DNA of 64,000 bases. It comes from an uncultured Bacteroides sp. (lineage in GTDB: Bacteria > Bacteroidota > Bacteroidia > Bacteroidales > Muribaculaceae). The translations under genes were made by a program, and so were the position numbers. Every line of letters begins with the position of its first letter. Position 1 is the stretch's first letter. Location: NCBI GenBank assembly GCA_964508865.1, contig CAZDVP010000001.1, positions 626 to 64,625 on the forward strand, read 5' to 3'. The notes beneath the pieces are model-generated. The model searched no databases. It saw only the letters and a list, made by a program, of their open reading frames with translations, and was not told where the DNA came from. This document shows, piece by piece, positions 1,608 through 63,431 of this stretch.

Positions 1608-1919
1608 TCAATAATCTGCCTCTTTTTCTTCCTCCAGACGCTTAACATCAGGATAATCGAACACATTTTCATCATTCCTCACCGATATTGTTTGGACTTC
1701 ATATCCATCATCAGCAAGTTTAGTAATGTATTCCAAACATCCTTTTGGAAACGATACTTTTGGTACAGCATCATTGATTAGAGTTAATGATAACGATGCG
1801 GCCACTTTTTTGGAATCTTCAAAGAGTGCGACATATTCGTCACCTACTCTGAAGAGAAGAATGGCCGTCGGGCACAACCGTTTGTAATGGTTGTATGCGT
1901 CAATTTGATTCTTACTCAT
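1608..1919 (-). CDS. MutS domain I-like small protein
   Basis: 103 aa. The segment YKRLCPTAILLFRVGDEYVALFEDSKKVAASLSLTL parallels the MutS N-terminal LK..[21 protein letters not shown]...s..L.i.LT. There are no other MutS domains. Confidence 0.5.
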   Translation of the reverse strand: MSKNQIDAYNHYKRLCPTAILLFRVGDEYVALFEDSKKVAASLSLTLINDAVPKVSFPKGCLEYITKLADDGYEVQTISVRNDENVFDYPDVKRLEEEKEADY

Positions 1920-2897: not shown

Positions 2898-3320
2898 TTA
2901 TTTAGGTTTAATGTTAATATTACACTCATAAGCCTGACACAATGACAAAAACAAGTCAATCGTAATTACTTGACGCTTATTAACCACATTGCAGATTGAA
3001 GTGGGCGAAAATCCGGTCATTTCCGCTAATGTGGCTACTGTCCAGTTTGATTCTTTATGCTTAGTCAGAAACCATTTTAACAAGTCATCGTAATGCTCGA
3101 TTTTAACCGATCTCCCAGGACCTTTCCCTTGAATGTACACACAAAATCCTAATGCGTCCAGATACTTAATGGCAAGTTCCATTTTATAATTATTGAACGC
3201 TGTTTCAAGACGTTGCAACTGGTTAAAATTGAACCCTGCTTGACGGCACAATTCATTCTTACCCAGGCCAACATTTTCTCGTGTTGCTCCTAATTTAGTG
3301 CTAAATTCTATTCTGTTCAT
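2898..3320 (-). CDS. XRE-family HTH transcriptional regulator (repressor-like)
   Basis: 140 aa with two HTH-like segments (GKNELCRQAGFNFNQLQRLE; TLAEMTGFSPTSICNVVN). It is divergent from 3397..3702 and a palindromic operator lies between them. Confidence 0.65.
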   Translation of the reverse strand: MNRIEFSTKLGATRENVGLGKNELCRQAGFNFNQLQRLETAFNNYKMELAIKYLDALGFCVYIQGKGPGRSVKIEHYDDLLKWFLTKHKESNWTVATLAEMTGFSPTSICNVVNKRQVITIDLFLSLCQAYECNINIKPK

Positions 3321-3336
3321 TGTAAATTATTTGATG

Positions 3337-3344
3337 CAAAGTTA
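3337..3344 (-). promoter_or_regulatory. -7 promoter box TAACTTTG for repressor-like gene
   Basis: Matches TAnnTTTG and lies 17 nt upstream of the ATG at 3320. Confidence 0.45.
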
Positions 3345-3352
3345 GCCATAAA

Positions 3353-3369
3353 ATTTGGTAGTTACAAAT
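3353..3369. promoter_or_regulatory. candidate operator ATTTGGTAGTTACAAAT (ATTTG-N7-CAAAT)
   Basis: It sits between the divergent promoters. An exact reverse-complement copy is at 22443..22459 and a copy with one mismatch is at 22007..22023. Confidence 0.5.
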
Positions 3370-3377
3370 ATAAAACA

Positions 3378-3385
3378 TAACTTTG
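3378..3385 (+). promoter_or_regulatory. -7 promoter box TAACTTTG
   Basis: Matches TAnnTTTG and lies 12 nt upstream of the ATG at 3397. Confidence 0.45.
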
Positions 3386-3396
3386 CAGAAAAAAGT

Positions 3397-3702
3397 ATGG
3401 GAAACGTAATGAAATGTCGGCTTTGTAGTTATGTGGGCCAAAAATTAAAGAAACTGTATGCTCATCAACTTATCCATTTCCCGGAACTTGCTCCCGAAGA
3501 ACTGGAGAGGAATATGAGCAAATACTATTCCGTGTATCATAGGTCCAAACGAGCTACTGAACCGACATCTCATCCAGTAAAGAATGATCCAATGTCAATC
3601 CACATTGCCTCCTCACGGGTAAAACAAGTTTATCCGAAATTCAGCACTGAGGGCGGCATGGCAAACGATGACTACCAATATGGTCTCAGTGAAAAAGATT
3701 AG
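3397..3702 (+). CDS. small C2H2-like zinc-finger protein
   Basis: MGNVMKCRLCSYVGQKLKKLYAHQLIH. The first ATG follows the promoter box; the track ORF starts at 3355. Confidence 0.5.
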   Translation: MGNVMKCRLCSYVGQKLKKLYAHQLIHFPELAPEELERNMSKYYSVYHRSKRATEPTSHPVKNDPMSIHIASSRVKQVYPKFSTEGGMANDDYQYGLSEKD

Positions 3703-6858: not shown

Positions 6859-8049
6859 TTATCGACGAGGACGGCGATTCTTATTGATTTCACGCATCAG
6901 TTTTCGTGCCTCGCTCTGCTTGGCCCACTCACGCTTGGTCTCTTCGTAGTTGAAGTTGTTATACTTCAAGAACTCTTTCAGGAGGCCGAGCATTTCGTAA
7001 CCATAGTCGTTCACACCACGATTGACAAGTTCAGTAGCCTTGCGCTCCAGTGCGGCAAGCGACTCTTCCTGCTGAATGAAGTGACGTACATCTCGGTAGG
7101 AGCGGATGCAAGTGTCACCACTTGCGTTGACTTGCAACAGGCAGTTCTCGAAGAGGATTAAGTCCTTGATTGTGTAGTATGCGCCGGCAGCTTTGTATGC
7201 GTTCATAAACGAAGGACACATTTCCGGATAGTAGACGATACCTCGACGAAGTGCACTGAACTTCTGAACCGCAGCATAAAGAGTCTTAGGGAGTTTGGAG
7301 ACGGATATTGTCCGGATTGCAGTTTCAAGCGTTTTGTAGAATGAGAGAAGTTCATCGGTATGGATGCCTTTGCCATTGTTCATCCAATTGCAACGCAGTT
7401 TGACATATTTGCGACCCTTGTGATTACGTTGAGGCATATTCTCGATATACTTCTTCAGACTGCTGAGGAAGTGGTTTGCCATATCAAGAGCGATGGTCTT
7501 GTTGTACCAGCGATTACGGTCTTCGTAACCCTCGGTGTCGTTGTCAGCCGCCATCTTCTGCTGACGCTTCAGGTCGTTGAGAAGAACATCCCAGCTGTAG
7601 TCGTAGCCCTTGCGCTTCAGCATATCGTGAAAACCGACTGTGAGATTGCGACGGCCCTCCTTGTAGAAGAGCATCTGGAGACACTGTGAAGGAATCCAGC
7701 GGCGGACAATGCCCTCGACTTCGATGTAGCCGTCTGCCTCGATTTTATCAATGAGGCCGGCGATGATACGAGCGGCATTAGGAGACGAGAGGGCGGCAGA
7801 GAGTGTCTCCTCAATGCTTGATGCTCCAGAGACAGGAACACGATCGGTGCAGTGAACCGAGGTACAAGCGAGACCGCTGGGTTCAGTGGGAAGCACGACC
7901 GTTCCGAGGCCGCTATCCTTGCCGATAGCCATACCAGACACCGGGTGCTGGTTAGCCGGGATGATGATTTCTGCGCCACAGTTGGAGCAGATTACTTTGG
8001 TTGTAGACTGAGTGTTGTTCATACGATTTGATGATTTCTTTGTTGCCAT
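6859..8049 (-). CDS. hypothetical protein with N-terminal zinc ribbon
   Basis: 396-aa ORF with CSNCGAEIIIP near the N-terminus and a basic C-terminal tail. I recognise no family. Confidence 0.65.
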   Translation of the reverse strand: MATKKSSNRMNNTQSTTKVICSNCGAEIIIPANQHPVSGMAIGKDSGLGTVVLPTEPSGLACTSVHCTDRVPVSGASSIEETLSAALSSPNAARIIAGLIDKIEADGYIEVEGIVRRWIPSQCLQMLFYKEGRRNLTVGFHDMLKRKGYDYSWDVLLNDLKRQQKMAADNDTEGYEDRNRWYNKTIALDMANHFLSSLKKYIENMPQRNHKGRKYVKLRCNWMNNGKGIHTDELLSFYKTLETAIRTISVSKLPKTLYAAVQKFSALRRGIVYYPEMCPSFMNAYKAAGAYYTIKDLILFENCLLQVNASGDTCIRSYRDVRHFIQQEESLAALERKATELVNRGVNDYGYEMLGLLKEFLKYNNFNYEETKREWAKQSEARKLMREINKNRRPRR

Positions 8050-8091
8050 TTCTGTAATTATTATGAGTTTGTAAATTGATTGTTTGTTTTT

Positions 8092-8544
8092 TTAGAACCA
8101 GTCCTTTCTGAGGATGAAGGATTTGTCAGTTCCCTGATAGAACCAGTCCTTTGCGAAGAGTTCTTCCGGATTGAACGATCCGTTCAGAAGTGAAAGGAGA
8201 ATGAAGACCTCCAGTTCGGCCTGAGCGACATCTCTTGACTTGGGGTTGTTGAGGGCATCGTGGCCGCACTCCTTTATGAGTTCCGACACTGACAATGCTT
8301 TGAATTTTGCAGTTCGCTCTTTGGCCATTGATGATTTAGTCGGTCGGCTGTACTTGTATGTGTCATACAGATTTTCAACCTCATCCAGCCAAACATCTAA
8401 ATCCGGATGCACAGGGATTCCATACGGTGTTTTGGTTAGATCCACCACCTTTCCGTCGATTATTAGACTTCGTTTCTTGAAGTCTACCCGAAAGCGAGAA
8501 CCTTTGCTCACTTTCTCAATTACATTTTCGTATATTGTGCTCAT
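8092..8544 (-). CDS. hypothetical protein
   Basis: 150-aa ORF with no recognisable motif. Confidence 0.6.
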   Translation of the reverse strand: MSTIYENVIEKVSKGSRFRVDFKKRSLIIDGKVVDLTKTPYGIPVHPDLDVWLDEVENLYDTYKYSRPTKSSMAKERTAKFKALSVSELIKECGHDALNNPKSRDVAQAELEVFILLSLLNGSFNPEELFAKDWFYQGTDKSFILRKDWF

Positions 8545-8604
8545 TGTTAAGAAGTTTTCAAATTAGTTGCTCATCCCGTCGTCACATAAATTTAATTCTT
8601 CCAT

Positions 8605-8699
8605 GATATACCGGCTGAGGTCAGGTCCCGAAGTGTGCAGGACTCGAAAGTCATTCGAGTCGAAACACTTCGTGTCCCTGAGTTGAAAGCCGGTAGATC
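8605..8699 (+). ncRNA. structured module B1 (long interrupted hairpin)
   Basis: Stems GAT.TACCGGCT/AGCCGGTA.ATC, TCAGG/CCTGA, CGAAGTGT/ACACTTCG and GACTCGAA-agtca-TTCGAGTC. A CATAAA box lies 14 nt upstream. Confidence 0.4.
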
Positions 8700-8785
8700 T
8701 AAATAGTCGGGCCTTGCAACTGTTTAGGCTGTGCTACCGTTTGGACTTTCGCACTGGATTGTACGTCACTGTAAATTTGCCAATT

Positions 8786-8874
8786 CATACTGTAGGAGCA
8801 AGCTCCGGCGGCTGAAGGCTTCCAGGAAGTAAGTCCTGGAAGGCGGGGCCGAGGAGCTGGATTGCAACAGTATG
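8786..8874 (+). ncRNA. structured module B2 (long interrupted hairpin)
   Basis: Stems CATACTGT/ACAGTATG, AGCTCC/GGAGCT and GGCTTCCAGGA/TCCTGGAAGGC. It is preceded by TAAATTTG (an exact TAnnTTTG match) and TTCATA. Confidence 0.4.
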
Positions 8875-8957
8875 ACTAAAGTTTCCAGTCTTGATAGCCC
8901 TCTTCGTATGTTCTTGATTTCTCATAGTTTGTAACGCATTTATATAATCTTGTAAAT

Positions 8958-9014
8958 CTATTACCTGTAAGACCACGGTAATATCTCCCACTACCTGTGT
9001 ATTACAGGTAATAG
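8958..9014 (+). ncRNA. structured module B3
   Basis: An 11-bp stem CTATTACCTGT/ACAGGTAATAG, or alternatively two sub-hairpins. It is preceded by TATATAATCTTGT. Confidence 0.3.
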
Positions 9015-9110
9015 TAAAAAGGGAAACTCTTTGAAATCAAGTGCTGCATTGCATAACATTGATTGTTAATGGTGTCACAAACATGGCGCATTGATATAAT
9101 CTGTTCATAG

Positions 9111-9188
9111 GATCCAGTTTAAGAACTTCTGAAGGGCTGGTAGTCATCCAGCCATTCAGAAGTATCTCAGTACACGGCGAACTGGATC
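9111..9188 (+). ncRNA. structured module B4 (paralog of A1)
   Basis: Stems GATCCAGTT/AACTGGATC, ACTTCTGAA/TTCAGAAGT and GGCTGG-tagtcat-CCAGCC. It shares GATCCAG-N8-CTTCTGAA with A1 and is preceded by GATATAATCTGTTCATA. Confidence 0.45.
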
Positions 9189-9290
9189 TTAAATTGAAGT
9201 TTGCCCTCACCATTGTTCATGCGCTTGATAAAGATGGTTCAATTTACGGACTTGGCACGTTGCTGAAATCATCTCATGTGGCCACGAGAA

Positions 9291-9354
9291 GTCTGAATCG
9301 ACGGGACTTGGAACGCCGACAGCAATCGGCGTGGAACGTCCCGTCGATTTGGAT
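9291..9354 (+). ncRNA. structured module B5 (could double as RT terminator)
   Basis: A 12-bp stem AATCGACGGGAC/GTCCCGTCGATT and a 7-bp stem ACGCCGA/TCGGCGT. The outer extension GTCTG/TTGGA(T) needs G.U pairs that work only on the plus strand. Confidence 0.35.
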
Positions 9355-9401
9355 TATTCTCGTGTACCTAAATGTGTCCGTCTCATCTGAACCTGTCGTG
9401 C

Positions 9402-10721
9402 TTAAATATCTCTGACAATTGAATCGTAAAGGTCACGGCCATACAAGAGATTGTTTCTCATACACCCAAGAGAATAAAAGCCTTCGATACGTTCTCCAGT
9501 CTTTTCTCTTAAAGTGCGAATCTTTCGACCCTTACCACGAGCAATGCAACCCTCTTTGCTGGTCTTTACCCAACCGAGACCGCCGATGTCGTTCATGCCT
9601 ACTGATTTCCCAACCTTCACTGCCCTCAGACAGTCAAGTACAAATCCGTTCAATGTGTCAATGTCAGACTTTACATTGATAGTCTTCAGAACACCGGTAG
9701 CCCAGGAGTATTGTCCGTCTCCATAATAGAGCCAAGACTGAACTGAGTGCAAAGCAGTCTGGAATTTGATACCAGTTCGTATTTTTGAGATAGTACGTGA
9801 TGTAACCTCCTTGACGAATGATTTTATTCGATTACTGCTCAGACTGATATTGGCTCCCTTGATTGAGAAGCCGAGGAACTTGAACCAATGGTCATTGTCT
9901 ATGTACTCGACCTTTTTGGGATTGAGTCTCATATCCATTTCCTCCAGTGTTGAAACCAAGACCTCCATTGCTTTCTCATATTCCTTTCCGATGAATAAAA
10001 TGTCATCTGAATACCGGACATAATACCCTCCAGCCTTGCCTCCGTAATTATCGTTAATGACCTTATCGAGGTGGTAAAGAATCGTATCGGCCAACCAGGA
10101 GGCAACAGCGCACCCTTGTTTAAGGCTCTGATAGTGTGTCACCTCTTCTTTAAGTTCGCTGTCATAGAAGAGGTCGAGGTGGTAATACTCCCGGACAATA
10201 TCAATTATTAGGGATTTCCCATATACTTTTTCAATAGCGTCAAACTTAGAGTCAATGTAGCGAATAGGAACCGAGTCAAAATATTTACTCAGGTCGGCTT
10301 TCCATCCGATTATATTATGAGAGACCCCACTTAACTTGTCAATCATCTGACTGGCGTGGGTCACGATTTTGGCACACCCAATTCCTTTTTGATAAGATGT
10401 ACACTGAGGGTGAATCCAACCTCCAGTGGAAGCGGTGAGATCAAAAAGTAGATCGTTGACGATAGAGAGAAACACCCTGTCTCTATCGTTGTTGATGAAT
10501 ACAGTGCGAAACTCGCCCGGAACATCTTTGGGGATTTTGGCGGTGTGAGGACGTTCAATATGATAATTGCCGGACACAATCTCTGCCAGCAAATTCTTAC
10601 GCCCATTGGGAGACATAAGGTCTCTAAGCACCGCCTGACTGATTCCTTTGAAAGCCCCTTTGTTGAGAGCATCCTCCCAACGTTTCTTTTCAAAGAACAT
10701 TTCTAATATCTTGTCTTCCAT
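9402..10721 (-). CDS. reverse transcriptase, non-DGR type (class unassigned)
   Basis: 439 aa with RT motifs IPKDVPGEFRTVF, KADLSKYFDSV, LKQGCAVASWLAD, YVRYSDDILFIG (YxDD), LNPKK and FKFLGFSI. It lacks the DGR-type [LIV]GxxxSQ signature. Confidence 0.85.
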   Translation of the reverse strand: MEDKILEMFFEKKRWEDALNKGAFKGISQAVLRDLMSPNGRKNLLAEIVSGNYHIERPHTAKIPKDVPGEFRTVFINNDRDRVFLSIVNDLLFDLTASTGGWIHPQCTSYQKGIGCAKIVTHASQMIDKLSGVSHNIIGWKADLSKYFDSVPIRYIDSKFDAIEKVYGKSLIIDIVREYYHLDLFYDSELKEEVTHYQSLKQGCAVASWLADTILYHLDKVINDNYGGKAGGYYVRYSDDILFIGKEYEKAMEVLVSTLEEMDMRLNPKKVEYIDNDHWFKFLGFSIKGANISLSSNRIKSFVKEVTSRTISKIRTGIKFQTALHSVQSWLYYGDGQYSWATGVLKTINVKSDIDTLNGFVLDCLRAVKVGKSVGMNDIGGLGWVKTSKEGCIARGKGRKIRTLREKTGERIEGFYSLGCMRNNLLYGRDLYDSIVRDI

Positions 10722-10722
10722 A

Positions 10723-10944
10723 TTAGCCTAATACTAAATAATTATTGATTGCGTCTTCTTCTGATACTCCGAATGGAAGTGGCAACATACCTTCATCTTC
10801 TCCCATTTTTGTGAAAAGTTGAAATAATTCGTGAGTACCATTTGCTTCATCGTCAGAAGTAATGAGGATTTTCTTGTCTCCATAACCGACTTTTACAAGA
10901 CGAGCCGATTCCTCAGCAAGTTGCTTAATCGTGATTGCTTCCAT
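10723..10944 (-). CDS. small acidic hypothetical protein
   Basis: 73 aa. Its stop lies 1 nt from the RT start, so translational coupling is likely. It is not Avd-like, being acidic rather than basic. Confidence 0.55.
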   Translation of the reverse strand: MEAITIKQLAEESARLVKVGYGDKKILITSDDEANGTHELFQLFTKMGEDEGMLPLPFGVSEEDAINNYLVLG

Positions 10945-10985
10945 TGTGAAATTGAGTATCGTTCATAATTCAATTTGGTATATTA

Positions 10986-11009
10986 GCCGGGCCAGAAAAC
11001 TGGCCCGGC
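10986..11009 (-). promoter_or_regulatory. GC-rich hairpin 3' of VR2 (DGR target-recognition-type element and/or terminator)
   Basis: A 10-bp stem gccgggccag/ctggcccggc with a 4-nt loop (TTTT on the gene strand), 34 nt after the end of VR2. Confidence 0.6.
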
Positions 11010-11031
11010 AGTAAAGAATGAAGAATGAGGA

Positions 11032-11715
11032 TTAAGCCTCACACGCTACAGAGGGACGAACCGTATAGTTGGTATACTTGTTGAAGTAGTTGCCCGTGAT
11101 ACCAGTACCGAAATACACGTACCAGGAGTCGTAGCTACTGTACTCGCTACTCGACCAATGGTTCCCAGCTTGGAGTTCGTCACCACCAGCAGCAACTAAT
11201 GCCTTGTTGACTTCATTGATGAAGAGGAGGATGAGGTGCAGCTGGGCCACACTGGGGATGTACTCGTTGTCCTTCAAACCAATCTTGGGATTGAGATAAG
11301 GACGAAGACGAGCGGTGTTGCCTTCACCATCCCAGTCTGCCATAGCAGCGTTGAATGATTTACGGTATGCTTCCGGGGTTTCGGAACACTCTTTGTCCTC
11401 GTCGATGAGAGCCACATCGTTGCCGTTTGCAGCATCATGGAGGGCAACTGTGGCCACATGGCCCATAGCCTTGACTGCGACACCTACGATTGCCTCCTTT
11501 TTGACGAGACCGATGTTCTCAACTGGCATCAGAGTCTTGTCGGTCATCACATAGTAGATGCCATCACTGGTGGGCTTTACGTTGATGTTCATTGTAGAGG
11601 TGGGTTTGTCGCTTTCAAGCACAAAGTCACACACCTCTTTTGCCTTGTTTACGTCGAAACCGACGGCACCGACTACTGCGGCGCGAAACTCTTGGATTTC
11701 TGTAAGATTTCCCAT
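11032..11715 (-). CDS. DGR target protein 2 (DUF1566/C-type-lectin-like variable C-terminus)
   Basis: 227 aa with C-terminus GNHWSSSEYSSYDSWYVYFGTGITGNYFNKYTNYTVRPSVACEA. This stretch is encoded by VR2, which matches the TR at 62075..62201. Confidence 0.85.
   Translation of the reverse strand: MGNLTEIQEFRAAVVGAVGFDVNKAKEVCDFVLESDKPTSTMNINVKPTSDGIYYVMTDKTLMPVENIGLVKKEAIVGVAVKAMGHVATVALHDAANGNDVALIDEDKECSETPEAYRKSFNAAMADWDGEGNTARLRPYLNPKIGLKDNEYIPSVAQLHLILLFINEVNKALVAAGGDELQAGNHWSSSEYSSYDSWYVYFGTGITGNYFNKYTNYTVRPSVACEA
11044..11170 (-). repeat. DGR variable repeat VR2
   Basis: Hand alignment of 127 nt against TR 62075..62201 gives 14 differences, and every one is at an adenine of the TR. Confidence 0.9.
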
Positions 11716-11731
11716 TTTGTTAATTGTTTTA

Positions 11732-13378
11732 TTATGCGGTTAATTGAAGTTGGTTAGCGATATATTCCATCTCAGAGTAAGCGATGGAGTGGCACCCTGC
11801 GGTGAGGATGTCATTGCGATAAGAAGTGATCGTCCAGTGATCGTCAACTGCACGGCAAATTTCACGAGTGAACTCGGCAGCGTTTTCATGCCATCTCTTG
11901 ACAAGAGACCATAGACGTTTACATTCTTCGATAGTGATTTTGATGCCCTTAGAGGTTTCTACGATAGCACCCTTGATGCGGAGTAAAACATTGCCTCCAT
12001 AGAAGACACTGGGGCTTCCTGTGTTGTAGAGTTTGAAACCTTCGTGATACAACTGACGGACACCTTCCGGGGTCTTTTTCAGTTCGTCGATGTATTCTCG
12101 CTTAGATGCTTCAAGTTCTTCGTAACGTCTCCGTTCTTCTTCGACCTCTCTCCAGTGCTGATCCCAATGAGCACGAGCTTCTTCATGCTGGCGTGTCTCT
12201 TCCTGGAAGCCTTCCAGAACCTCTTGACGCTTGTTGATGACCCACTGACGCTGCTGTTCGAGCGGAAGAGAACAATATGTCTGATACTCTTCATAAGTCA
12301 GACGTTTTTCTCTGTGCCATGAGCAGAAGTGGAAAACGGTGCCGTTGAAGTTGAAGGAAGTTGGCAGATTGTTACGGAATGGACTGAGAGAATCATGTGG
12401 CATCCAGCCTCTCATTCCCAGATGTTTCTCCAGCCGCTCTTTCGCTTTCTCACAAGCAACTTGACGAGCTGCTACTAAGTTAGCGGTGTAGGCTGATTTA
12501 ACATTGGTCTGGCGAAGATTGTACAGCCATTGTATGTAATCACCCTTCTTTTTGTGCTGAGTGATAGATTTCTTGTTGATTGGGTTGTCGGTCACAACTG
12601 GAGAAACCATTCCATGAACAGTCGGCCTTACCATTTCTCCCCTCCAGCCTGGACCCTTAACAAATACCAATGAGCGGAGGCGGCGAGTCTTCTCTGCGTT
12701 TTTCAGAGGCTCGATGCGTTTTTGATAATCGGCCCATGTACCCTCTCCGTTAACCATGTCAACGATAGCCTCAATCGGATCGTTGTCAAGCATCATCTGG
12801 AGGAATTTGCGAACTCGCTTATCTACCTGCTTGTAGGTGCAGTTAATACTCCGCATATATGGAATATGCGTCCTGAAGTCATCGAACTTCATTCGGAGAA
12901 GTTTCTTGACAGTCATGCACCCAGTGACGTTAAACCAGCGGACCATTTCCTCATAACCCTTACGAGAGAAAGGGTGACTGAGAGCATTGCAATCGGGAAC
13001 GAGTAGACAATGACTGTATTCCTCCATCAGGTATCTCATTCCGAACTCTATCAAAGCCTTATTGCGTTGTTCTTTAGTCTGTCCGTGATAGAAGGAGATA
13101 ATACGATACGAACCTCTTTCGTGGCCTTTGAAATTGAATATCTCCTTAGCTATGTCGTTGGGAATCGCGCTTCTGACCCAACCTTGATGGCCAGAGGTCG
13201 TATTGCTGTAACTTGCAGTGTCCAGCAGAAATAGTACCTTGCCGTTGATCTCAATTCGCTGTCCGATGCAGGTGCTGTATGAATATATACAGCCATCATC
13301 GTGACTCATGTGAGACGAGTTGTGCGCCTTGTCGAGATTGTGCGCCCAAGCATGGGCAACCGATGAATAATCACTCAT
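11732..13378 (-). CDS. hypothetical protein
   Basis: 548-aa ORF. The N-terminus reads AHAWAHN...SYSTCIG...SNTTSGHQGW and the centre is a charged coiled-coil. I cannot name a family with confidence. Confidence 0.65.
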   Translation of the reverse strand: MSDYSSVAHAWAHNLDKAHNSSHMSHDDGCIYSYSTCIGQRIEINGKVLFLLDTASYSNTTSGHQGWVRSAIPNDIAKEIFNFKGHERGSYRIISFYHGQTKEQRNKALIEFGMRYLMEEYSHCLLVPDCNALSHPFSRKGYEEMVRWFNVTGCMTVKKLLRMKFDDFRTHIPYMRSINCTYKQVDKRVRKFLQMMLDNDPIEAIVDMVNGEGTWADYQKRIEPLKNAEKTRRLRSLVFVKGPGWRGEMVRPTVHGMVSPVVTDNPINKKSITQHKKKGDYIQWLYNLRQTNVKSAYTANLVAARQVACEKAKERLEKHLGMRGWMPHDSLSPFRNNLPTSFNFNGTVFHFCSWHREKRLTYEEYQTYCSLPLEQQRQWVINKRQEVLEGFQEETRQHEEARAHWDQHWREVEEERRRYEELEASKREYIDELKKTPEGVRQLYHEGFKLYNTGSPSVFYGGNVLLRIKGAIVETSKGIKITIEECKRLWSLVKRWHENAAEFTREICRAVDDHWTITSYRNDILTAGCHSIAYSEMEYIANQLQLTA

Positions 13379-26285: not shown

Positions 26286-26864
26286 TTATCGGACTTTGCC
26301 TATTTTATAGATAATACCTCCGATGAAATTTCCCACTACTGTTCCGATATAGGCTAATGCAGCTGACCAGGATAACGCCTCCCAACCAACGGAGTAGTAG
26401 AAGGCATCAGCGACTGAGTGGGTAAATCCGCAAAGCACAAATGCCGGGATTCCGATAAGCAATGGCCAAGGGGTTTTCTTCCAAGTGCTGACGGCCAATG
26501 TCATTATGTAACCGCAACCGGCACCTCTCGCCATACATTCCAGGAATCCCCAATCTGTACGTTGCTCGACGATGGATTGACAACTGCTGATAATGTCCGG
26601 ATTGAATGAAGTCCAGAATGACATCAAGATACAGCCGATAATATTTCCGATAAGGACGATGAGTGAGAGCAGTACGTCTGAAAATTCCTTTGTACGTTTG
26701 ATTGCTCCAGTGTAGAGCACGAAACTGAACGTGCATACCGACATGAGACCGATGCTGAATAGGACTGCTCCTAATGGGCCGGGGTACTGGAGGCTCATAT
26801 AAGCCCCCAGCGATATTGCGGCCCCGCCCAGCATAAGGTTTAGGATTTGTTTAATGATTTTCAT
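26286..26864 (-). CDS. formate/nitrite transporter (FNT)-like membrane protein, short form
   Basis: 192 aa and multi-pass. LCGFTHSVADAFY resembles the FNT signature GFEHSIAN. Confidence 0.5.
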   Translation of the reverse strand: MKIIKQILNLMLGGAAISLGAYMSLQYPGPLGAVLFSIGLMSVCTFSFVLYTGAIKRTKEFSDVLLSLIVLIGNIIGCILMSFWTSFNPDIISSCQSIVEQRTDWGFLECMARGAGCGYIMTLAVSTWKKTPWPLLIGIPAFVLCGFTHSVADAFYYSVGWEALSWSAALAYIGTVVGNFIGGIIYKIGKVR

Positions 26865-60700: not shown

Positions 60701-61358
60701 ACTTCCTACAAATCTGGAAGAGTTAGGCAATATGATGGAGATCCTTCAGAAAGCAAATGGAAATCTTTCTATTTTCCGTCAGTTTGCTTTCCCTGCTGCC
60801 TACTCCTGCTATCTCTATGAACCTGTGCTGAAAGAAGGCGAAACACTTGATCCTCAGTTTGCACGTAACAACTGGTACCTCCCGGCAGAGGGTGAATTGA
60901 TGCGTCAATTCTCTTTCTATGGTGTATCTCGCACTGGTGGCTTAGGAACGGCGCAAGCAACCGGTCAGAACACTCAGCCAAATAGAAGTGTGATTGACGC
61001 AATGATTCAGGCGGCGCACGACTCATCGGAAAGCAATCCGATTAAGCAGACTGTTAAGCAATCAAGTATTGATGCTTCCAGTTATTCTGCTGCTGAAATG
61101 TCTGCTATCAATCAGTATTTCCAGACATTGACTGAATGTGAAATGCCGATTTACTCTCTTGTGCTATGGAGAGCATTGGTTGGGGGCAATTCTTCGCCCT
61201 TTATCAATCATACAGCTGGGTACCATTGGTCGAGTAGCGAGAACAGTAGCAACGGCTCCTGGTACGTGAGTTTCGGTACTGGTAACACGTACTACTACAA
61301 CAACAAGTATGGCTACTATACGGTTCGTCCCTCTGTAGCGTATGTTTTCATGCTTTAA
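54756..61358 (+). CDS. giant tail fibre / receptor-binding protein, DGR target 1
   Basis: 2200 aa. The C-terminal DUF1566/C-type-lectin-like module (NNWYLPAEGELMRQF...GYHWSSSENSSNGSWYVSFGTGNTYYYNNKYGYYTVRPSVA) is encoded by VR1. Confidence 0.85.
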   Translation: MAKKAIAVKGYIPDISTPWEWIDENGQLKAYDGESVENLLRRVISDLQTTKVGYFVIPQNKETDGYYHLWGFASQSDYSDYLTDPVSNASLRLLNTAIPILEEQGGVSNIVTLTRNSAASIVTSKAEASVEVSYLWQQYNPITKETTDQDEDATIIVSCRTQNANGTWGAWDSSKEFTVSIQSGQTKTIDLSKLLTSDATYQIRLVATGETSEISASPVTVSIVYSNVAAKYEGQIATAYQGSSIQLPFRISGSVQKQLRIKIGNYTKNFTLGTTTYTDNTYGATLTQAEFGLTRGAVKAEAWIAFGEGYAAETEHQEFQFIYLPENDTITTPILAVTDIMEEFQNWTRATIFRYAIYNPQSDETFLRITLQDRTTGQIYIQKDITCMNGESYEFDENFGMEYEGDEQPTTIQAQATFVNASGLTYGNNINFTVDNSENFAPTKGANLILSPEKHSLVIDGEDYDVADLITDKDDTNSGWKTNTEFDSTGAQVNVPVLSIAAGNKLTIPYELFNSNTGHNNNGVEGSITIEFDIKVKNIVSNAPIIDASAPFDKAYTGLKFYPTRAVCLSQNNNSEDICDATFCEETREHIAINIIRNLRGEGLNLVRFYINGKSNRSYIYTDEDNFIPIGANGAQNLVIGSDDADIDIYGLRVYKDQQLGSVQIQNDYMAGMPTIEDKKKFKRFNSIYNGTEISYDQCNAMGLNTILRKIPQGGHYPSRENQDKQKNVTIDVRIFKERGNAESLDRKHSGTFVGMTDKGQGTSAKGYYWWNISDGFEDDVEIAADAYDPSDPTHYTADGKYFKKISYFNSLDGISQVYASKYEIEDGRGGITKLVGKCNYASPMQSHKLGGVWAYDELWQLLVNDGSGGRTVLQDTHAACYELPFLCFYQIGNGTPIFCGFQTWGSGKGDKKTFGYDKKKSPGYMCVSGADNGAVAALFQMPWLVSKNTQGAWSGNVYAKSVTINTGDVKNGYCYKSGVSDNLAFEVEIGSKYDGGETDKGVLRIADEAKGETETTLYTHFADFCNFICSCSPLLKPYAGTEAQLIADSANLKNDHQYWLFNTGPDRYKVYYYNPLTAKFEQLPKVATKWGADGRASQFGSPTLTSQLAGVTVTIDSVEGKTSMTLEEAMDTLGTSDMNVVNDLFCKARVAYFKAHADSYLDVVDVIFHQCFCKLFGATDNRTKNTYYWIDPAIDKLVRLKQDDLDTILATDNQGRQTKPYYVLEHTKDSNGSNYWNGENNILYTLIERAYPDRMRNMMRDIFSRMSQIAGSVEEYMQKRFYWVQEYFPAVAYNETSRVLYEVAQVKLMNGLIDVSQDPITQAVGDQLECEKQFMSQRLPMLMSWCEYETGGDGTLSFRSVDTLDGSQAVYDLEYTAYQYIYPKMSLGGAMPSIYAKVNGEWVLQDGSEPYLCAPGETVRMVVTASVSNQQFTLRWLHYAQRIGNIGALSCGDEGSITIVGKRLRKLECWSPDGTPIEFHPKGISILNCRNLEEVNLTNASSFSGGFSFDLPRLKKLLLKGSAYTSVTLPKTSTLTQVSYPASINSIIVNGQPNLSSISVESMANVRTLRVIGQHKIQTQTQPLVQLAYSQGQNVNSVTMENIAWVGMSVNVLIWLQNMKASLTGSIGLSDNLTYATKASLVETYGDIDSQTNDLYVTYNKYNITGFNIKGNTYMSQLGLYPYTIAPVPTRGNDVAIKNGKLDIEWSIEEGGQIYATFEDAVAGLLKVSQLDASGTDTRYAITCKLTRTNGQTITNSVQVGFYLRVPKIGDFAYADGTFDDQFQRDKTVVGVVYKIDPMYQGEGDEAPTTYSGYNKPTNAVLENKQLVGYRVLIDSKEDAVIKSTDSFINTASNAWGLYNEGSTGVHGTNGFTTEMGNKIQAQIGSNAFDTPIPNIGNTSEWSSGWYLHRGTYFNSEESDGFKQFSSGAPADWDGKNKTRKIVRHMESIFNGYLMGEFNEDILTEWVEETENGNIVHQITELPTNLEELGNMMEILQKANGNLSIFRQFAFPAAYSCYLYEPVLKEGETLDPQFARNNWYLPAEGELMRQFSFYGVSRTGGLGTAQATGQNTQPNRSVIDAMIQAAHDSSESNPIKQTVKQSSIDASSYSAAEMSAINQYFQTLTECEMPIYSLVLWRALVGGNSSPFINHTAGYHWSSSENSSNGSWYVSFGTGNTYYYNNKYGYYTVRPSVAYVFML
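61209..61340 (+). repeat. DGR variable repeat VR1
   Basis: Hand alignment of 132 nt against TR 62070..62201 gives 14 differences, all at adenines of the TR. Confidence 0.9.
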
Positions 61359-61366
61359 TCCTCTCT

Positions 61367-61392
61367 GGCGAGTTGCCTTTTGGCAACTCGCC
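61367..61392 (+). promoter_or_regulatory. GC-rich hairpin 3' of VR1 (DGR target-recognition-type element and/or terminator)
   Basis: An 11-bp stem ggcgagttgcc/ggcaactcgcc with loop TTTT, 26 nt after the end of VR1. Confidence 0.6.
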
Positions 61393-61417: not shown

Positions 61418-61963
61418 ATGTTAAATAAATCAAACGAAAAGTCTCCTACGGAGAAGGCTTTAGAGTCTCACGCATCTATAACCGGAATATTTGAAGAGGT
61501 AGAATTTCTTCCCTCTGAAGATACAGTTGTGCTTACACAGGCAGAAATTGACGCTGCCAAAAAGAATAAACGAGATATGCGTAAAAAGGCTAAAACCTTT
61601 GTAAATGCCCCAATATATCGAACATTCCACAACGCTACATCTCTACTTATGCAAATCATCACACTCATGCCTAAAAAGACGGTCAAACTGAGTGATGTAA
61701 TGCTGATAAAATTGAATGATGCGATTCAATGGACTGCATCGGCTTATGAACAAAAAGATCCGATTCATAAACATTATTCGCTCTGTGAGGCTATATCTTT
61801 AATGTACAGCATTAAGGTGTACGCAAATTCAGCTTCAAGTCTAAATCTCATCGGCAAGAGCAAGTCTACTCAACTGAGCAAAGCGATTGACGCTATTTTA
61901 CGCCAACTTGTAGCATGGCGAGGCTCATTGATAGATAAGGGCGATAATGCTTGCGATCAATAA
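61418..61963 (+). CDS. avd: Avd-like DGR accessory protein with N-terminal extension
   Basis: The helical basic C-terminal half (LMPKKTVKLSDV...AIDAILRQLVAWRGS) fits the four-helix-bundle Avd pattern. It sits between the target gene and the TR/RT. The ATG is at 61418; the track's TTG at 61373 lies inside the hairpin. Confidence 0.6.
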   Translation: MLNKSNEKSPTEKALESHASITGIFEEVEFLPSEDTVVLTQAEIDAAKKNKRDMRKKAKTFVNAPIYRTFHNATSLLMQIITLMPKKTVKLSDVMLIKLNDAIQWTASAYEQKDPIHKHYSLCEAISLMYSIKVYANSASSLNLIGKSKSTQLSKAIDAILRQLVAWRGSLIDKGDNACDQ

Positions 61964-63431
61964 TCAATACATTATCGGAATGTCTGAGTTTCTGATTTCA
62001 TACGGGCGGCATACTCCGTATCATAATGTCAATATGGTTAGGAGTTACGAAGATGCAATGCCGCAAACACAAACAGCTGGGAACCATTGGTCGAGTAGCG
62101 AGAACAGTAGCAACAACTCCTGGAACGTGAATTTCGGAACTGGTAACACGAACAACAACAACAACAAGTATAACAACTATACGGTTCGTCCCTCTGTAGC
62201 ACATGAGTCAGATGAGTGGATAGCTCTCAGGGAAACCCTGCAAATTGCTTTTAAGGATTGCTGTAGAGGAAAAACAAGCAGCAAGCAATGCCAGGAATAT
62301 ATCCCTATTGCCGATGAGGACTTGGATGCTTTAACAACAGAACTACTTGAAAGGCGATATAAGCCGGACACATCTACTTGTTTTCTTGTCAAGTTTCCCA
62401 AATTACGAGAAGTCTTTGCCGCTGCTTTTCGTGATCGCATTATCCATCATTGGCTTTGCCTCAGATTAGAACCACTATTTGAACGTCTTTGCCGTCAACA
62501 AGGTAATGTGACACATAATTGCCGGAAAGGGTATGGCACTAAGACCGCTGTTGAGCAAGCTGCCAAAGGGATTAAAAAAGTCACTGGAAATTATCATAAG
62601 GAAGGCTGGATTTTCAAGGGTGATTTGGTCGGTTTCTTTATGTCGATCGACCAATATAAGATGTGTAAACGGTTATTGAAATTTGCCGAGACACATTATA
62701 ATGGCGATTTTAAGGAGTTACTATTGTGGCTTCTTGAAGTAGTAGTGATGCACCGGCCCGAAAAGAATTGCCTTCTCAATTCCGACCCTCGTGATTTCAT
62801 CTTTCTCCAGGCTAATAAATCTCTTCATCGTTGCGCTCCCGGAAAAGGTATGCCAATTGGAAACTTGACCACACAGTTATTCGCTAATTTCTATATGGCG
62901 GAATTTGATGGGTTTGTCGTAAAGTGCCTCAGAGCCTATCAGCGTAAGAATCGTGGTTTCAAATGGTCATACACCAGGTTTGTGGATGATTACATTATTA
63001 CTTGCAATGATAAAAAGTTCCTGTTGTGGTTTATTGAGCAGTGTGCCGCTAAACTTAACGAGATGGGCTTGAAACAGCACAAGAATAAACGGTATATCCA
63101 ACCTGCTAATCATGGAGTTATGTTTGTCGGGAAATATATACACAACGGAAGAATTTATTTGAGCAACAGAACACTTTCGAGGTTTAGAGAGAAAGTTCAT
63201 GGATATACCTTGTACCTCCAGAAACCTGAAGAAGAGATTACCTTTATGGAGTTGGATCATATTCGAGCCACCATCAACTCATATTTGGGTTTTTGTAAAG
63301 GTTGTCAGACATACAAATTTCGTAGGGAGATTCTCCGTGAGTTCTTTCTAAAATGCGAGAAATATTTTTACCATGATAAAAACTGGTCTAAAATCAAACT
63401 GAGAAGAAAATACACCACTATTTGTAAATAA
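61947..63431 (+). CDS. DGR reverse transcriptase (ORF includes the TR in its 5' part)
   Basis: Contains FPKLREVFAAAFRDRIIHHWL, GDLVGFFMSID, PIGNLTTQLFANFY (the DGR signature IGxxxSQ-like motif) and YTRFVDDYII. There is no in-frame ATG, GTG or TTG between the TR end and the conserved RT N-terminus. Confidence 0.85.
   Translation: MLAINNQYIIGMSEFLISYGRHTPYHNVNMVRSYEDAMPQTQTAGNHWSSSENSSNNSWNVNFGTGNTNNNNNKYNNYTVRPSVAHESDEWIALRETLQIAFKDCCRGKTSSKQCQEYIPIADEDLDALTTELLERRYKPDTSTCFLVKFPKLREVFAAAFRDRIIHHWLCLRLEPLFERLCRQQGNVTHNCRKGYGTKTAVEQAAKGIKKVTGNYHKEGWIFKGDLVGFFMSIDQYKMCKRLLKFAETHYNGDFKELLLWLLEVVVMHRPEKNCLLNSDPRDFIFLQANKSLHRCAPGKGMPIGNLTTQLFANFYMAEFDGFVVKCLRAYQRKNRGFKWSYTRFVDDYIITCNDKKFLLWFIEQCAAKLNEMGLKQHKNKRYIQPANHGVMFVGKYIHNGRIYLSNRTLSRFREKVHGYTLYLQKPEEEITFMELDHIRATINSYLGFCKGCQTYKFRREILREFFLKCEKYFYHDKNWSKIKLRRKYTTICK
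62070..62201 (+). repeat. DGR template repeat (TR)
   Basis: In the frame matching the VRs it carries 13 AAC codons and 1 AAT codon. It is the donor sequence for both VR1 and VR2. Confidence 0.9.

Follow-up and report, generated by a model that had tools for sequence, protein, structure and literature searches.

The locus studied here raises the question of whether a DGR can act on a gene that lies far from its cassette and on the other strand. In the 64,000 nt of DNA analyzed (the window, part of a contig of 96,956 nt, ~97 kb, from a gut Bacteroidales phage), a segment at the end of a small minus-strand gene resembles the template repeat (TR) of a DGR found 50.9 kb (~51 kb) away in the opposite orientation. 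The first-pass annotation had taken this segment, VR2, for a second target of that DGR. The relationship of the repeats, the anatomy of the site, the alleles present in other assemblies and the layout of related phages are considered in turn, followed by the possible role of the gene product.

Repeats and cassette of the DGR

Three repeats are involved:

11044 to 11170, minus strand: VR2, variable repeat at the remote DGR target and a 127-nt ungapped match to the TR
62075 to 62201, plus strand: TR, with 45 A in 127 nt, rich in AAC codons and in frame within the RT ORF
61214 to 61340, plus strand: VR1, the variable repeat in cis, in the 3'-terminal part of the gene for a 2200-aa tail-module protein

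Recomputing the alignment of the reverse complement of 11044..11170 with the TR gave the coordinates and counts of the first-pass annotation exactly: 127 nt, zero gaps and 14 mismatches, of which 14/14 are at TR adenines (9 A>T, 4 A>G and 1 A>C). All 82 non-A positions (82/82) are identical, so that no mismatch falls on a non-A position of the TR. The codon changes listed earlier recur as well (AAC to TAC, GAC, ATC, GGC, TTC or ACC; AAT to TAT; GGA to GGT; GCA to GCG). With 45 A among 127 positions, the probability that 14 random mismatches would all fall on A is 1.1e-7. VR1 shows the same pattern, with 13/13 mismatches to the TR at adenines, and differs from VR2 at 15 positions, the two having 112/127 nt in common. 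A scan of the non-A positions together with word-7 blastn of the TR found these three repeats to be the sole copies in the 64-kb window, and thus no second TR closer to VR2. The proteins encoded by the two targets have next to nothing in common beyond the VR; the resemblance is confined to a 42-aa VR segment with 74% identity and a weak ADWDG motif. Because the scaffolds are unrelated outside the VR, perfect identity at the non-A positions is not that of ordinary paralogy.

The TR and VR1 belong to the following cassette:

54756 to 61358, plus strand: gene of the primary DGR target (2200 aa), with which the structural/tail block ends
61418 to 61963, plus strand: putative Avd-like accessory gene (181 aa; ATG at 61418, ORF opening at 61373), between the target gene and the TR/RT
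61947 to 63431, plus strand: DGR reverse transcriptase ORF (494 aa), with Pfam RVT_1 and the motifs PIGNLTTQLFAN and FVDD

The core of the reverse transcriptase (RT) begins near residue 95. Its only relative of solved structure is a 328-aa YMDD RT carrying IGSLTSQLFAN (PDB 8UB7, E 2e-13), which we take to be the Bordetella bRT from its length and its YMDD and IGSLTSQ motifs. In PADLOC, no specific UG/Abi or retron model wins for this ORF. Judged from RVT_1, the PDB relative and the motifs, the RT adjoining the TR can be placed in the DGR clade. The Avd-like ORF itself had no Pfam or PHROG match. Its product is 43% identical to gp26 of Bacteroides phage BS-TP1, annotated as 'four helix bundle protein', and gp26 in turn matches the bAvd Pfam family below threshold (E 0.031). 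From its canonical position and its likeness to gp26, 61418..61963 may encode an Avd. The 2200-aa protein has a weak Lcl_C match at its C-terminus and is homologous to BS-TP1 gp27, a published DGR target.

The remote target gene and its target site

VR2 was described as coding for the C-terminal part of a 227-aa protein, and this holds:

11032 to 11715, minus strand: ORF of the remote target gene, whose product is called VR2p (227 aa); VR2 corresponds to residues about 182-224

Family scans of VR2p at default thresholds (Pfam, PADLOC, NCBIfam) gave nothing meaningful, and in PHROGs a single family of unknown function was matched and nothing else. Pfam Lcl_C remained below threshold in VR2p, yet it is on record for many of the homologues. 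Since the direct scans were uninformative, the fold was taken from an AF2 model (pLDDT 84). From its N-terminus the model has a segment of two helices, then a disordered linker, and finally a DUF1566/C-type-lectin-like domain, the fold for which the first-pass annotation had suggested a search by structure prediction. Against BFVD the model matched DUF1566 domains and C-terminal domains of tail fibres (E 1e-9 to 5e-8, TM about 0.6), and the Lcl C-terminal domain 8q4e was the counterpart in PDB, with an E value of 4e-3 by fold and 2e-4 by profile. The PDB fold search had zero matches at E <= 1e-3; the top two were nonetheless DUF1566-type domains, as expected. No signal peptide was evident by eye. 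The family is conserved, comprising 137 proteins, with alignment columns kept at the N- and C-terminal ends. According to the model, VR2 is thus 3'-terminal in an ORF with a C-type-lectin-type fold, as is the case for DGR targets, and VR2p would be a small soluble DUF1566/C-type-lectin-like binding protein whose variable residues derive from about 14 AAC/AAT codons.

Three elements downstream of the VRs are of importance for the target site:

11027 to 11043, minus strand: spacer directly 3' of VR2, with the stop codon and with the motif TTAATCCTC, also present in the VR1 flank
10986 to 11009, minus strand: GC-rich inverted repeat after VR2, with a 10-bp stem (GCCGGGCCAG/CTGGCCCGGC) and loop TTTT, 34 nt past the VR2 end
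61367 to 61392, plus strand: GC-rich hairpin after VR1, with an 11-bp stem and loop TTTT, 26 nt past VR1

The 3' end of VR2 is invariant (...ACGGTTCGTCCCTCTGTAGCG). When the 3' flanks of VR1 and VR2 were compared in the window and in BS-TP1, the spacer motif of BS-TP1 was found to be TTAATCTT; the spacer motif may have a role in the target site. The hairpins at DGR targets have been described as GC-rich, with a 7-10 bp stem and a 4-nt loop, located 4-34 bp past the VR, and missing from the TR (Guo et al. 2011, PMC3240598). The hairpins after VR1 and VR2 fit this description except in the loop sequence, and the 3' flank of the TR has no equivalent hairpin. The loop consensus, 5'-GRNA on the sense strand, is important in BPP-1 (PMC3240598), where the loop is GAAA; it is TTTT in the window phage, and TTTTT, TAA, TTTG and others occur in relatives. 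The disagreement may be lineage-specific, because the consensus was built on a small set of phage-related DGRs (PMC3240598). The VR2 hairpin is kept with compensatory stem changes in 18/19 IMG/VR relatives, and also in BS-TP1; in one relative (L002) the stem is shorter, as judged by eye. The terminator scan passes over the VR2 hairpin since no T-tract follows it, and an Rfam search of the whole window had no match at or above the gathering threshold. Taken together, 10986..11009 is a candidate target-recognition hairpin or cruciform of the DGR.

The BPP-1 DGR (mtd-avd-TR-brt) resembles the present one in its A-specific TR-to-VR transfer, its related RT, the 3'-terminal VR in a gene for a CLec fold and the GC-rich hairpin downstream. 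It has one target, adjacent to the cassette, which is the tail-fibre receptor-binding protein, whereas the window phage has two, one of them remote. By analogy with BPP-1, the avd-TR-RT cassette at 61.4-63.4 kb would be transcribed, and the RT together with the Avd-like protein would copy the TR RNA into cDNA, misincorporating opposite template adenines. Any segment in which a GC-rich hairpin comes after the matching VR 3' end would then be replaced by the cDNA. There are two sites of this kind, VR1 beside the cassette and VR2 far off on the opposite strand. As each would be rewritten independently, a different pair of alleles would result in each genome.

Ongoing diversification of VR2

Two independent metagenome assemblies of the same strain were compared with the window in the VR2 region. 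The contig from SRR9130365 (L169) is identical over 1,901 nt except inside 11066..11163, where there are 16 differences by gapped blastn and 18 without gaps. In the contig from SRR13282551 (L170) all differences, a 3-nt insertion included, are again in 11066..11163, apart from a SNP at 11174, just outside the VR. Three same-strain assemblies therefore carry three different VR2 alleles, with about 1.8 kb of identical flank. The L169 allele differs from the TR at 17 positions, 16 of them A, and the single non-A change in one allele is 62114 C>G. This change and the length variants of VR2 could be noise from assembly of mixed populations. At the other target, a contig from SRR9130099 (L163) differs from the window at 16 positions over 6,368 nt, all within VR1 (61221..61315), while the TR is identical in this independent assembly. 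Among the relatives of VR2p, as many as 264 alleles occur in a single protein cluster at 90% identity, with variation in the VR codons alone and none in the first 150 residues. VR2 is undergoing diversification at present, and the variation in the population is confined to the VR and is almost always at TR-A sites. The earlier view that VR1 and VR2 diversified independently from one TR agrees with the 15 differences between them and with the VR-confined allelic variation in other assemblies.

Very probably, VR2 is a true target of the single DGR of this phage, remote (in trans) and active at present. The proposal of a second target on the opposite strand has gained from the alleles within the same phage, the target-type hairpin, the predicted CLec/DUF1566 fold and the corresponding layout of BS-TP1. 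The differences from the TR could also be explained as frozen history, VR2 being an inactive relic of an old duplication or of a single past homing event. One genome alone cannot tell past from present activity, and positions 62138 and 62201 have the same base in 5/5 VR alleles. However, the three alleles within identical flanks and the allele counts of relatives, which run into hundreds per 90% cluster, are at odds with a relic, as are the intact reading frame, hairpin and 3' end, and this explanation is hardly credible. An artefact is just as hard to maintain. Because VR1 and VR2 share so much of their sequence, short reads could be mis-assigned, and the hypervariation could then come from mixing of VR1 and VR2 reads by assemblers, or else from gene conversion between the two. 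Yet the variant bases of L169 and L170 are at TR-A sites and mostly match neither the VR1 base nor the VR2 base of the window. Moreover, the unique flanks run contiguously into the variant VRs, and the variation extends across hundreds of contigs and is also present in isolate genomes.

A second RT, not of the DGR type, was missed in the first reading and had to be excluded as the diversifier of VR2:

6859 to 10721, minus strand: UG27 module, consisting of the UG27 RT, cluster 346 (RTas346) and cluster 337 (RTas337), with a long non-coding spacer
9402 to 10721, minus strand: UG27 RT (E 5e-174), downstream of the VR2 gene at a distance of about 300 nt

It is very improbable that this RT diversifies VR2, with the VR2 gene as part of the UG27 system. 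The proximity does favor such an arrangement, since the UG27 module is complete and follows immediately downstream of the VR2 gene on the same strand, VR2p homologues that are at least 43% identical adjoin UG27 in 25/25 loci, and one further locus (L130) has a different small CLec gene near UG27. The reciprocal association is the opposite. A VR2p-like gene was present within 6 kb in 2/80 UG27 loci and missing in 78/80, a count to be read as that of few independent lineages because one abundant lineage dominates the set; in three close relatives (L084, L085, L087) an upstream 548-aa gene abuts the UG27 RT directly. Moreover, UG27 is a UG/Abi class 2 RT outside the DGR clade, with Drt2 as the nearest solved relative, and no TR-like copy occurs near it, the only TR of the window being beside the DGR RT and the putative Avd gene. 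VR1 has the same mutational signature and the same TR, and the Bacuni phages diversify a homologous gene without any UG27. UG27 as a diversifier or obligate partner was ruled out by the reciprocal association and the lack of a local TR. Compared with the systems described by Mestre et al. (2022, PMC9226505), 6859..10721 is a typical set of RT, 346 and 337, in which the VR2 gene is no described component, and regular co-occurrence of the VR2 gene with the RT, cluster 346 and cluster 337 was not found here either. The same authors, whose set comprises 1,447 dereplicated UG27 genomes, mention no DGR link for UG27 and report it in some Quimbyviridae-like genomes (PMC9226505).

Related remote targets and the role of VR2p

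BS-TP1 (PQ571274; 111.7 kb), which infects B. salyersiae BG8, is the closest cultured relative of the window phage, though distant in DNA similarity. Megablast against GenBank phages gave no match for 10000-13000 and only one stretch, 75% identical and from BS-TP1, for 33000-57000. The two phages are syntenic, gp27/gp26/gp25 of BS-TP1 corresponding to target/Avd/RT and gp79, gp80 and gp82 to the UG27 module, while gp76 is a homologue of VR2p with 46% identity. The UG27 RT of BS-TP1, gp79, has a motif of the YSDD type, and the catalytic motif of gp25 is the counterpart of FVDD in the window. The complete BS-TP1 genome contains exactly one TR and two VRs, so that in this relative a second TR is lacking genome-wide. 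The VR in gp76 is 51 kb from the TR and has 11/11 mismatches at A. The authors of BS-TP1 reported gp27 as the only DGR target (Gut Microbes 2025, PMC12694917); the VR of gp76, recognized from its sequence, is first shown in the present analysis.

Bacuni F1/F2/F4, siphoviruses of Bacteroides uniformis, have one TR and two targets like the window phage (Hedzet et al. 2021, PMC8143477). Their published 'distant' target, Bacuni_F1_00026, is homologous to VR2p by tblastn (33.5% identity over 82% of the query, residues 1-187, E 1e-18). Both proteins are about 225 aa long, have a DUF1566 fold and a C-terminal VR, and are encoded in a non-structural module away from the RT/TR. Mismatches between the Bacuni_F1_00026 VR and its TR are at adenines in 16/18 cases. 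In Bacuni, VR and TR share a strand and are 12.5 kb apart, in contrast to about 51 kb and opposite strands in the window phage. The Bacuni TR forms a small ORF of its own, while that of the window phage is part of the RT reading frame. Bacuni is a 40-kb phage without UG27; the window phage is about 97 kb, encodes a tail sheath and has its VR2 gene abutting the UG27 RT. On full-length homology, the C-terminal VR, a TR located elsewhere and a non-structural gene setting, VR2p belongs with the ~225-aa DUF1566 remote targets of the Bacuni_F1_00026 type. Another parallel is Quimbyvirus ('Quimbyviridae'; Benler et al. 2021, PMC8008677), which has one target ending the tail module, as in the window phage, and a second C-type-lectin target that is distal, on the opposite strand and among non-structural or conflict-related genes; the latter resembles the VR2 locus in architecture. 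Near-identical Quimbyvirus genomes show A-specific variation (PMC8008677). Three frames share the split RT of Quimbyvirus, compared with one ORF for the DGR RT of the window, and Quimby-like genomes have a median size of 75 kb. With homologous or analogous remote targets already published for the Bacuni phages and Quimbyvirus (PMC8143477, PMC8008677), the novelty implied by the first-pass annotation was overstated.

The VR2 gene was said to lie among minus-strand accessory genes rather than in the tail module, and its block does contain a DNA ligase, an integrase-family protein and HTH regulators, with the structural block on the plus strand. VR2p probably has a function other than receptor binding on the tail. 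There is about an even chance that, as a hypervariable binder distinct from the receptor-binding protein of the tail, it acts within the infected cell or on factors of the host. A virion component is a possible if doubtful alternative, in which VR2p would be an accessory adhesin or fibre encoded off the tail module and would provide a second receptor-binding specificity. The best structural neighbours of VR2p include C-terminal domains of large phage tail-fibre proteins, its predicted short N-terminal helical segment and linker could serve as an attachment module, and the Bacuni authors read both of their targets as adhesion ('fimbrial tip') proteins (PMC8143477). Against this, the VR2 gene is in an opposite-strand, non-structural block, and the homologue in Bacuni_F1 adjoins a DNA polymerase and a methyltransferase. 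The family also occurs across phages of differing tail types, tail-tube and tape-measure genes being annotated in Bacuni_F1 and a tail sheath encoded by the window phage, which argues against a specific docking site on the virion. Finally, Bacuni F1 and F2 share the same host despite 15 SNPs in the secondary VR, taken here as the distant one (PMC8143477). That VR2p is something other than an intracellular or host-factor binder or a virion adhesin seems unlikely.

A functional partnership of VR2p with the UG27 RT/ncRNA module is more speculative still and rather unlikely. If it were true, the DGR would keep changing which ligands are recognized by a subunit that serves a second retroelement in sensing or targeting, and a two-retroelement circuit would operate in phage-host or phage-phage conflict. 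The conserved position of the VR2 gene directly upstream of UG27 provides a lead on the roles of non-structural DGR targets and on that of UG27. Phage DGR targets outside the virion module are, to our knowledge, of a known kind, and we know of none with a known function. Since the cultured BS-TP1 carries an unreported second target in gp76, this function is experimentally accessible. The homologous ~225-aa DUF1566 family apparently recurs as a remote target among unrelated Bacteroidales phages, its genes being part of replication or accessory modules. Such remote targets escape DGR scanners that use windows of about 10 kb. The VR2 locus provides clean evidence from nature of rewriting at a distance: a site 51 kb off and on the other strand is altered no less readily than the one next to the cassette.

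Template repeat and variable repeats

The reverse complement of 11044..11170 aligned without gaps to 62075..62201 over 127 nt. As the first-pass annotation had claimed, the two copies differ at 14 positions, all of them adenines in the 62-kb copy (14/14), with every non-A position identical (82/82); the listed codon changes were reproduced on recomputation. If 14 mismatches were scattered at random over the 127 positions, all would hit one of the 45 A with P = 1.1e-7. The 62-kb copy is the template repeat (TR), since it is rich in A and in AAC codons and is flanked by an Avd-like ORF and the reverse transcriptase (RT) core. The third copy, VR1, is the 3' end of the gene for a 2200-aa protein, the last of the structural block, and its mismatches to the TR are likewise all at adenines (13/13). 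A scan of non-A positions and word-7 blastn of the TR against the window found no copies in the 64 kb beyond these three.

Repeats, hairpins and DGR reverse transcriptase in the window
62075..62201, + strand: TR
61214..61340, + strand: VR1
11044..11170, - strand: VR2, at the 3' end of the 227-aa ORF 11032..11715
61367..61392, + strand: GC-rich inverted repeat after VR1, 11-bp stem, TTTT loop, 26 nt from VR1
10986..11009, - strand: GC-rich inverted repeat after VR2, 10-bp stem, TTTT loop, 34 nt from VR2
61947..63431, + strand: DGR RT ORF, 494 aa, RVT_1 domain

VR1 and VR2 differ from each other at 15 positions, in agreement with the earlier proposal that they diversified independently from one TR. 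Their target proteins are essentially unrelated except for the 42 VR-encoded residues, so the perfect identity at non-A positions is kept by copying from the TR and not by recent duplication. Seven positions are mutated in both VRs, five of them with the identical substitution. Two TR adenines, 62138 and 62201 (VR2 11107 and 11044; VR1 61277 and 61340), carry the same replacement base in 5/5 VR alleles seen, both replacements being synonymous (GGA>GGT and GCA>GCG). These look like fixed differences between TR and VR, unlike fresh mutagenesis, and 62201 seems to mark the homology boundary.

The plus-strand block at 33.5-61.4 kb encodes portal, protease, sheath, tape measure, baseplate and tail proteins. 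The VR2 gene was correctly placed by the first-pass annotation on the minus strand outside this module; its block holds an NAD-dependent DNA ligase, an integrase-family protein, HTH regulators and many unknowns. Two other accessory-region ORFs were observed. One (26286..26864, - strand, 192 aa) matches PF01226, the formate/nitrite transporter family (E 1.4e-17); a membrane-channel-like gene is unusual in such a region of a phage. The other (1608..1919, - strand, 103 aa) is a stand-alone mismatch-recognition domain, with a precomputed MutS_I (PF01624) match in the matching Logan contigs.

Target sites, enzymes and fold of the VR2 protein

VR1 and VR2 share the invariant end ...ACGGTTCGTCCCTCTGTAGCG, where the TR instead ends in ...GCA, and the spacer 3' of each VR contains TTAATCCTC. 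Both are followed by a target-type hairpin; no comparable hairpin was found 3' of the TR. The hairpin after VR2 was not called by an intrinsic-terminator scan because no T-tract follows it. Downstream of the homologous gene the 10-bp stem is kept in 18 of 19 IMG/VR relatives (it is shorter in the remaining one) and also in the cultured phage BS-TP1, by means of compensatory changes such as GCCGGGCCAG, GCCGGGGCAG, GCGCCGCGCT and GGCAAGTGCC, each paired with its complement. In BPP-1 a hairpin/cruciform with a 7-10 bp GC stem and a 4-nt loop, 4-34 bp from the VR, is required for homing (Guo et al., PMC3240598), and the window hairpins match it except that their loop is not GRNA. By analogy with the BPP-1 paradigm, the RT, together with Avd, would make cDNA from TR RNA with mutations at A, and this cDNA would then replace either VR wherever a VR 3' end and hairpin are present, at any distance and on either strand.

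The ORF upstream of the RT is 43% identical to BS-TP1 gp26, which is annotated as a 'four helix bundle protein' and gives a sub-threshold bAvd match. The RT itself is of the DGR type. Only one solved structure is related to it, an RT of 328 aa with YMDD and IGSLTSQLFAN, presumably the Bordetella bRT; the alignment begins at residue 95, and the window RT has FVDD and PIGNLTTQLFAN as its motifs. The TR lies in frame within the RT ORF (residues ~43-85). No in-frame ATG occurs from the TR to the RT core, the single GTG codon being inside the TR, and the ATG of the RT overlaps the 3' end of the avd-like gene. Translation may therefore yield an RT that carries a lectin-like peptide, encoded by the TR, at its N-terminus. 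The identical 494-aa arrangement is seen in BS-TP1 gp25, whereas the TR of the Bacteroides uniformis phage Bacuni_F1 forms an 82-aa ORF of its own.

The family of the VR2 protein comprises 137 members at E <= 1e-3 and is conserved along its whole length. An AlphaFold model built from the family alignment (pLDDT 84) begins with two helices, followed by a disordered linker (residues 36-46) and then by an alpha/beta domain; the VR encodes the last four strands of this domain. Its best structural neighbours are DUF1566-type domains. They include the C-terminal part of a phage tail fibre of 1417 aa (E 1e-9) and a DUF1566 protein of 228 aa from a crAss-like phage (E 2e-9, TM 0.60); the best PDB entries are the C-terminal domain of Legionella Lcl and 4eps, a protein of Bacteroides ovatus. 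The family profile also matches Lcl (E 2e-4), and the suggested CLec/DUF1566 fold is thus supported. No signal peptide or lipobox was seen by eye at the N-terminus.

Natural variation and relatives

VR2 is currently rewritten in nature at about the intensity of VR1, as allelic differences among other assemblies and related clusters are concentrated in the VR. A public protein collection contains the exact 227-aa protein, in a cluster at 90% identity with two further members, whose contigs (L169 and L170) are independent assemblies from other sequencing runs.

Differences of other assemblies of the same phage from the window
L169 (SRR9130365): 1,901 nt aligned; every difference within 11066..11163 (18 positions, ungapped comparison)
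L170 (SRR13282551): 1,882 nt aligned; apart from one SNP at 11174, differences confined to 11066..11163, among them a 3-nt insertion in the AAC run
L163 (SRR9130099): 6,368 nt aligned (VR1, avd, TR, RT); 16/16 differences in 61221..61315 (VR1), TR identical

The L169 allele of VR2 has 17 mismatches to the TR, 16 of them at A. When 15 alleles of a related cluster of 264 member sequences were aligned, the first 150 residues had 0 variable columns and the VR had ~17 variable codons. The single non-adenine change in the L169 allele is C>G at TR 62114. The insertion in L170 falls within the AAC-repeat stretch and gives 228 aa against 227; a 3-nt insertion relative to its own TR is also seen in BS-TP1 VR1 (L082 28231..28360).

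BS-TP1, a cultured Bacteroides salyersiae phage, has a complete genome of 111,694 bp that is syntenic with the window and contains exactly one TR. One of its VRs is in gp27, the sole DGR target reported by its authors (PMC12694917). The second, not reported there, is in gp76, annotated as a DUF1566 protein (L001 9001-9654; BS-TP1 record 77864..78535, VR 78411..78522), 51 kb from the TR and on the other strand, with 11/11 mismatches at TR adenines. Together with the repeats, allelic variation, hairpins and fold, this layout bears out the earlier reading of VR2 as a remote, trans, opposite-strand target of one TR; the observation was confirmed and its interpretation supported.

Homologues of the VR2 protein at 30-39% identity, a more distant group, come from ~40-kb phages that lack UG27. 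The Bacuni_F1 homologue is encoded between the genes for DNA polymerase A and a C5-methyltransferase, and its VR, 12.5 kb from the TR that it matches, has 16/18 mismatches at A; we take it to be the 'distant' target of Hedzet et al. (PMC8143477).

The UG27 module and the role of the VR2 protein

A second RT, missed by the first-pass annotation, lies ~300 nt downstream of the VR2 gene and belongs to a complete UG27 module (6859..10721, - strand).

UG27 module downstream of the VR2 gene
9402..10721, - strand: full-length UG27 RT (PADLOC RT_UG27, E 5e-174)
8092..8544, - strand: RTas346, UG27-associated cluster
6859..8049, - strand: RTas337, UG27-associated cluster

A 73-aa ORF (10723..10944) abuts the RT start, and an 857-nt spacer without a convincing ORF (8545..9401, - strand) separates the RT from RTas346. 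Its core of ~200 nt (8723..8942) is conserved across six loci and has a CCAGG...CCTGG hairpin with several covarying pairs, features that fit the UG27 ncRNA prediction of Mestre et al. (2022, PMC9226505); no Rfam family matches this core. UG27 systems are found in human-gut phages and have no known function (same authors). The UG27 RT was rejected as the diversifier of VR2: no TR is nearby, the RT is of a non-DGR type with Drt2 as nearest solved relative, and in the Bacuni phages the homologous gene is diversified without any UG27.

Among loci with a homologue of the VR2 protein at least 43% identical, the UG27 RT, 346 and 337 lie downstream on the same strand in 20/20 from the viral collection and in 5/5 bacterial-assembly contigs (Muribaculaceae, Prevotella, Palleniella). 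In the reverse direction, a VR2-like gene is within 6 kb in only 2 of 80 UG27 loci, and in L084, L085 and L087 a homologue of the upstream 548-aa gene directly abuts the UG27 RT. In L130, one of the two exceptions and from another phage lineage, the small CLec gene is a different one (3168-3686, 2.3 kb upstream of the UG27 RT). It encodes a 172-aa CLec-type protein with a VR-like C-terminus (…WSSSEFSANYAWNVGFNDGN…) and is followed by a GC-rich hairpin of its own; no TR was found within the 13 kb searched. No connection between UG27 and DGR targets is drawn by Mestre et al. or in a 2025 gut-virome atlas. A functional tie of the VR2 protein to UG27 is possible but quite improbable.

As to its role, the chances are about even that the VR2 protein works as a binder within infected cells or on host factors. 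That it is a virion adhesin is a less probable but still serious alternative. The intracellular or host-factor binder is favoured because the family recurs in replication/accessory modules of phages with different tail architectures, and because Bacuni phages that differ by 15 SNPs in their secondary VR, taken here to be the distant one, keep the same host (Hedzet et al.).

It is well accepted that DGR targets can be remote or multiple, and Roux et al. note that their own pipeline misses such targets. The VR2 case is of limited novelty, since Quimbyvirus (Benler et al., PMC8008677) has a like layout of a tail-module target and a distal, opposite-strand, non-structural one, and the two-target layout of the Bacuni phages involves a homologue of the VR2 protein. 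It makes two modest additions, a gp76 target that had gone unreported in a cultured phage and an adjacency to UG27 that holds across the lineage, and with VR2 the role of non-structural phage DGR targets becomes experimentally tractable.

Relatives were also present as 116-143 kb contigs (L171, L172, L174, L175) in assemblies of isolates and MAGs from Muribaculaceae, Prevotella and Palleniella, and the names of two isolate contigs give a high coverage (cov 245, cov 480). This suggests hosts across Bacteroidales and possibly episomal carriage.
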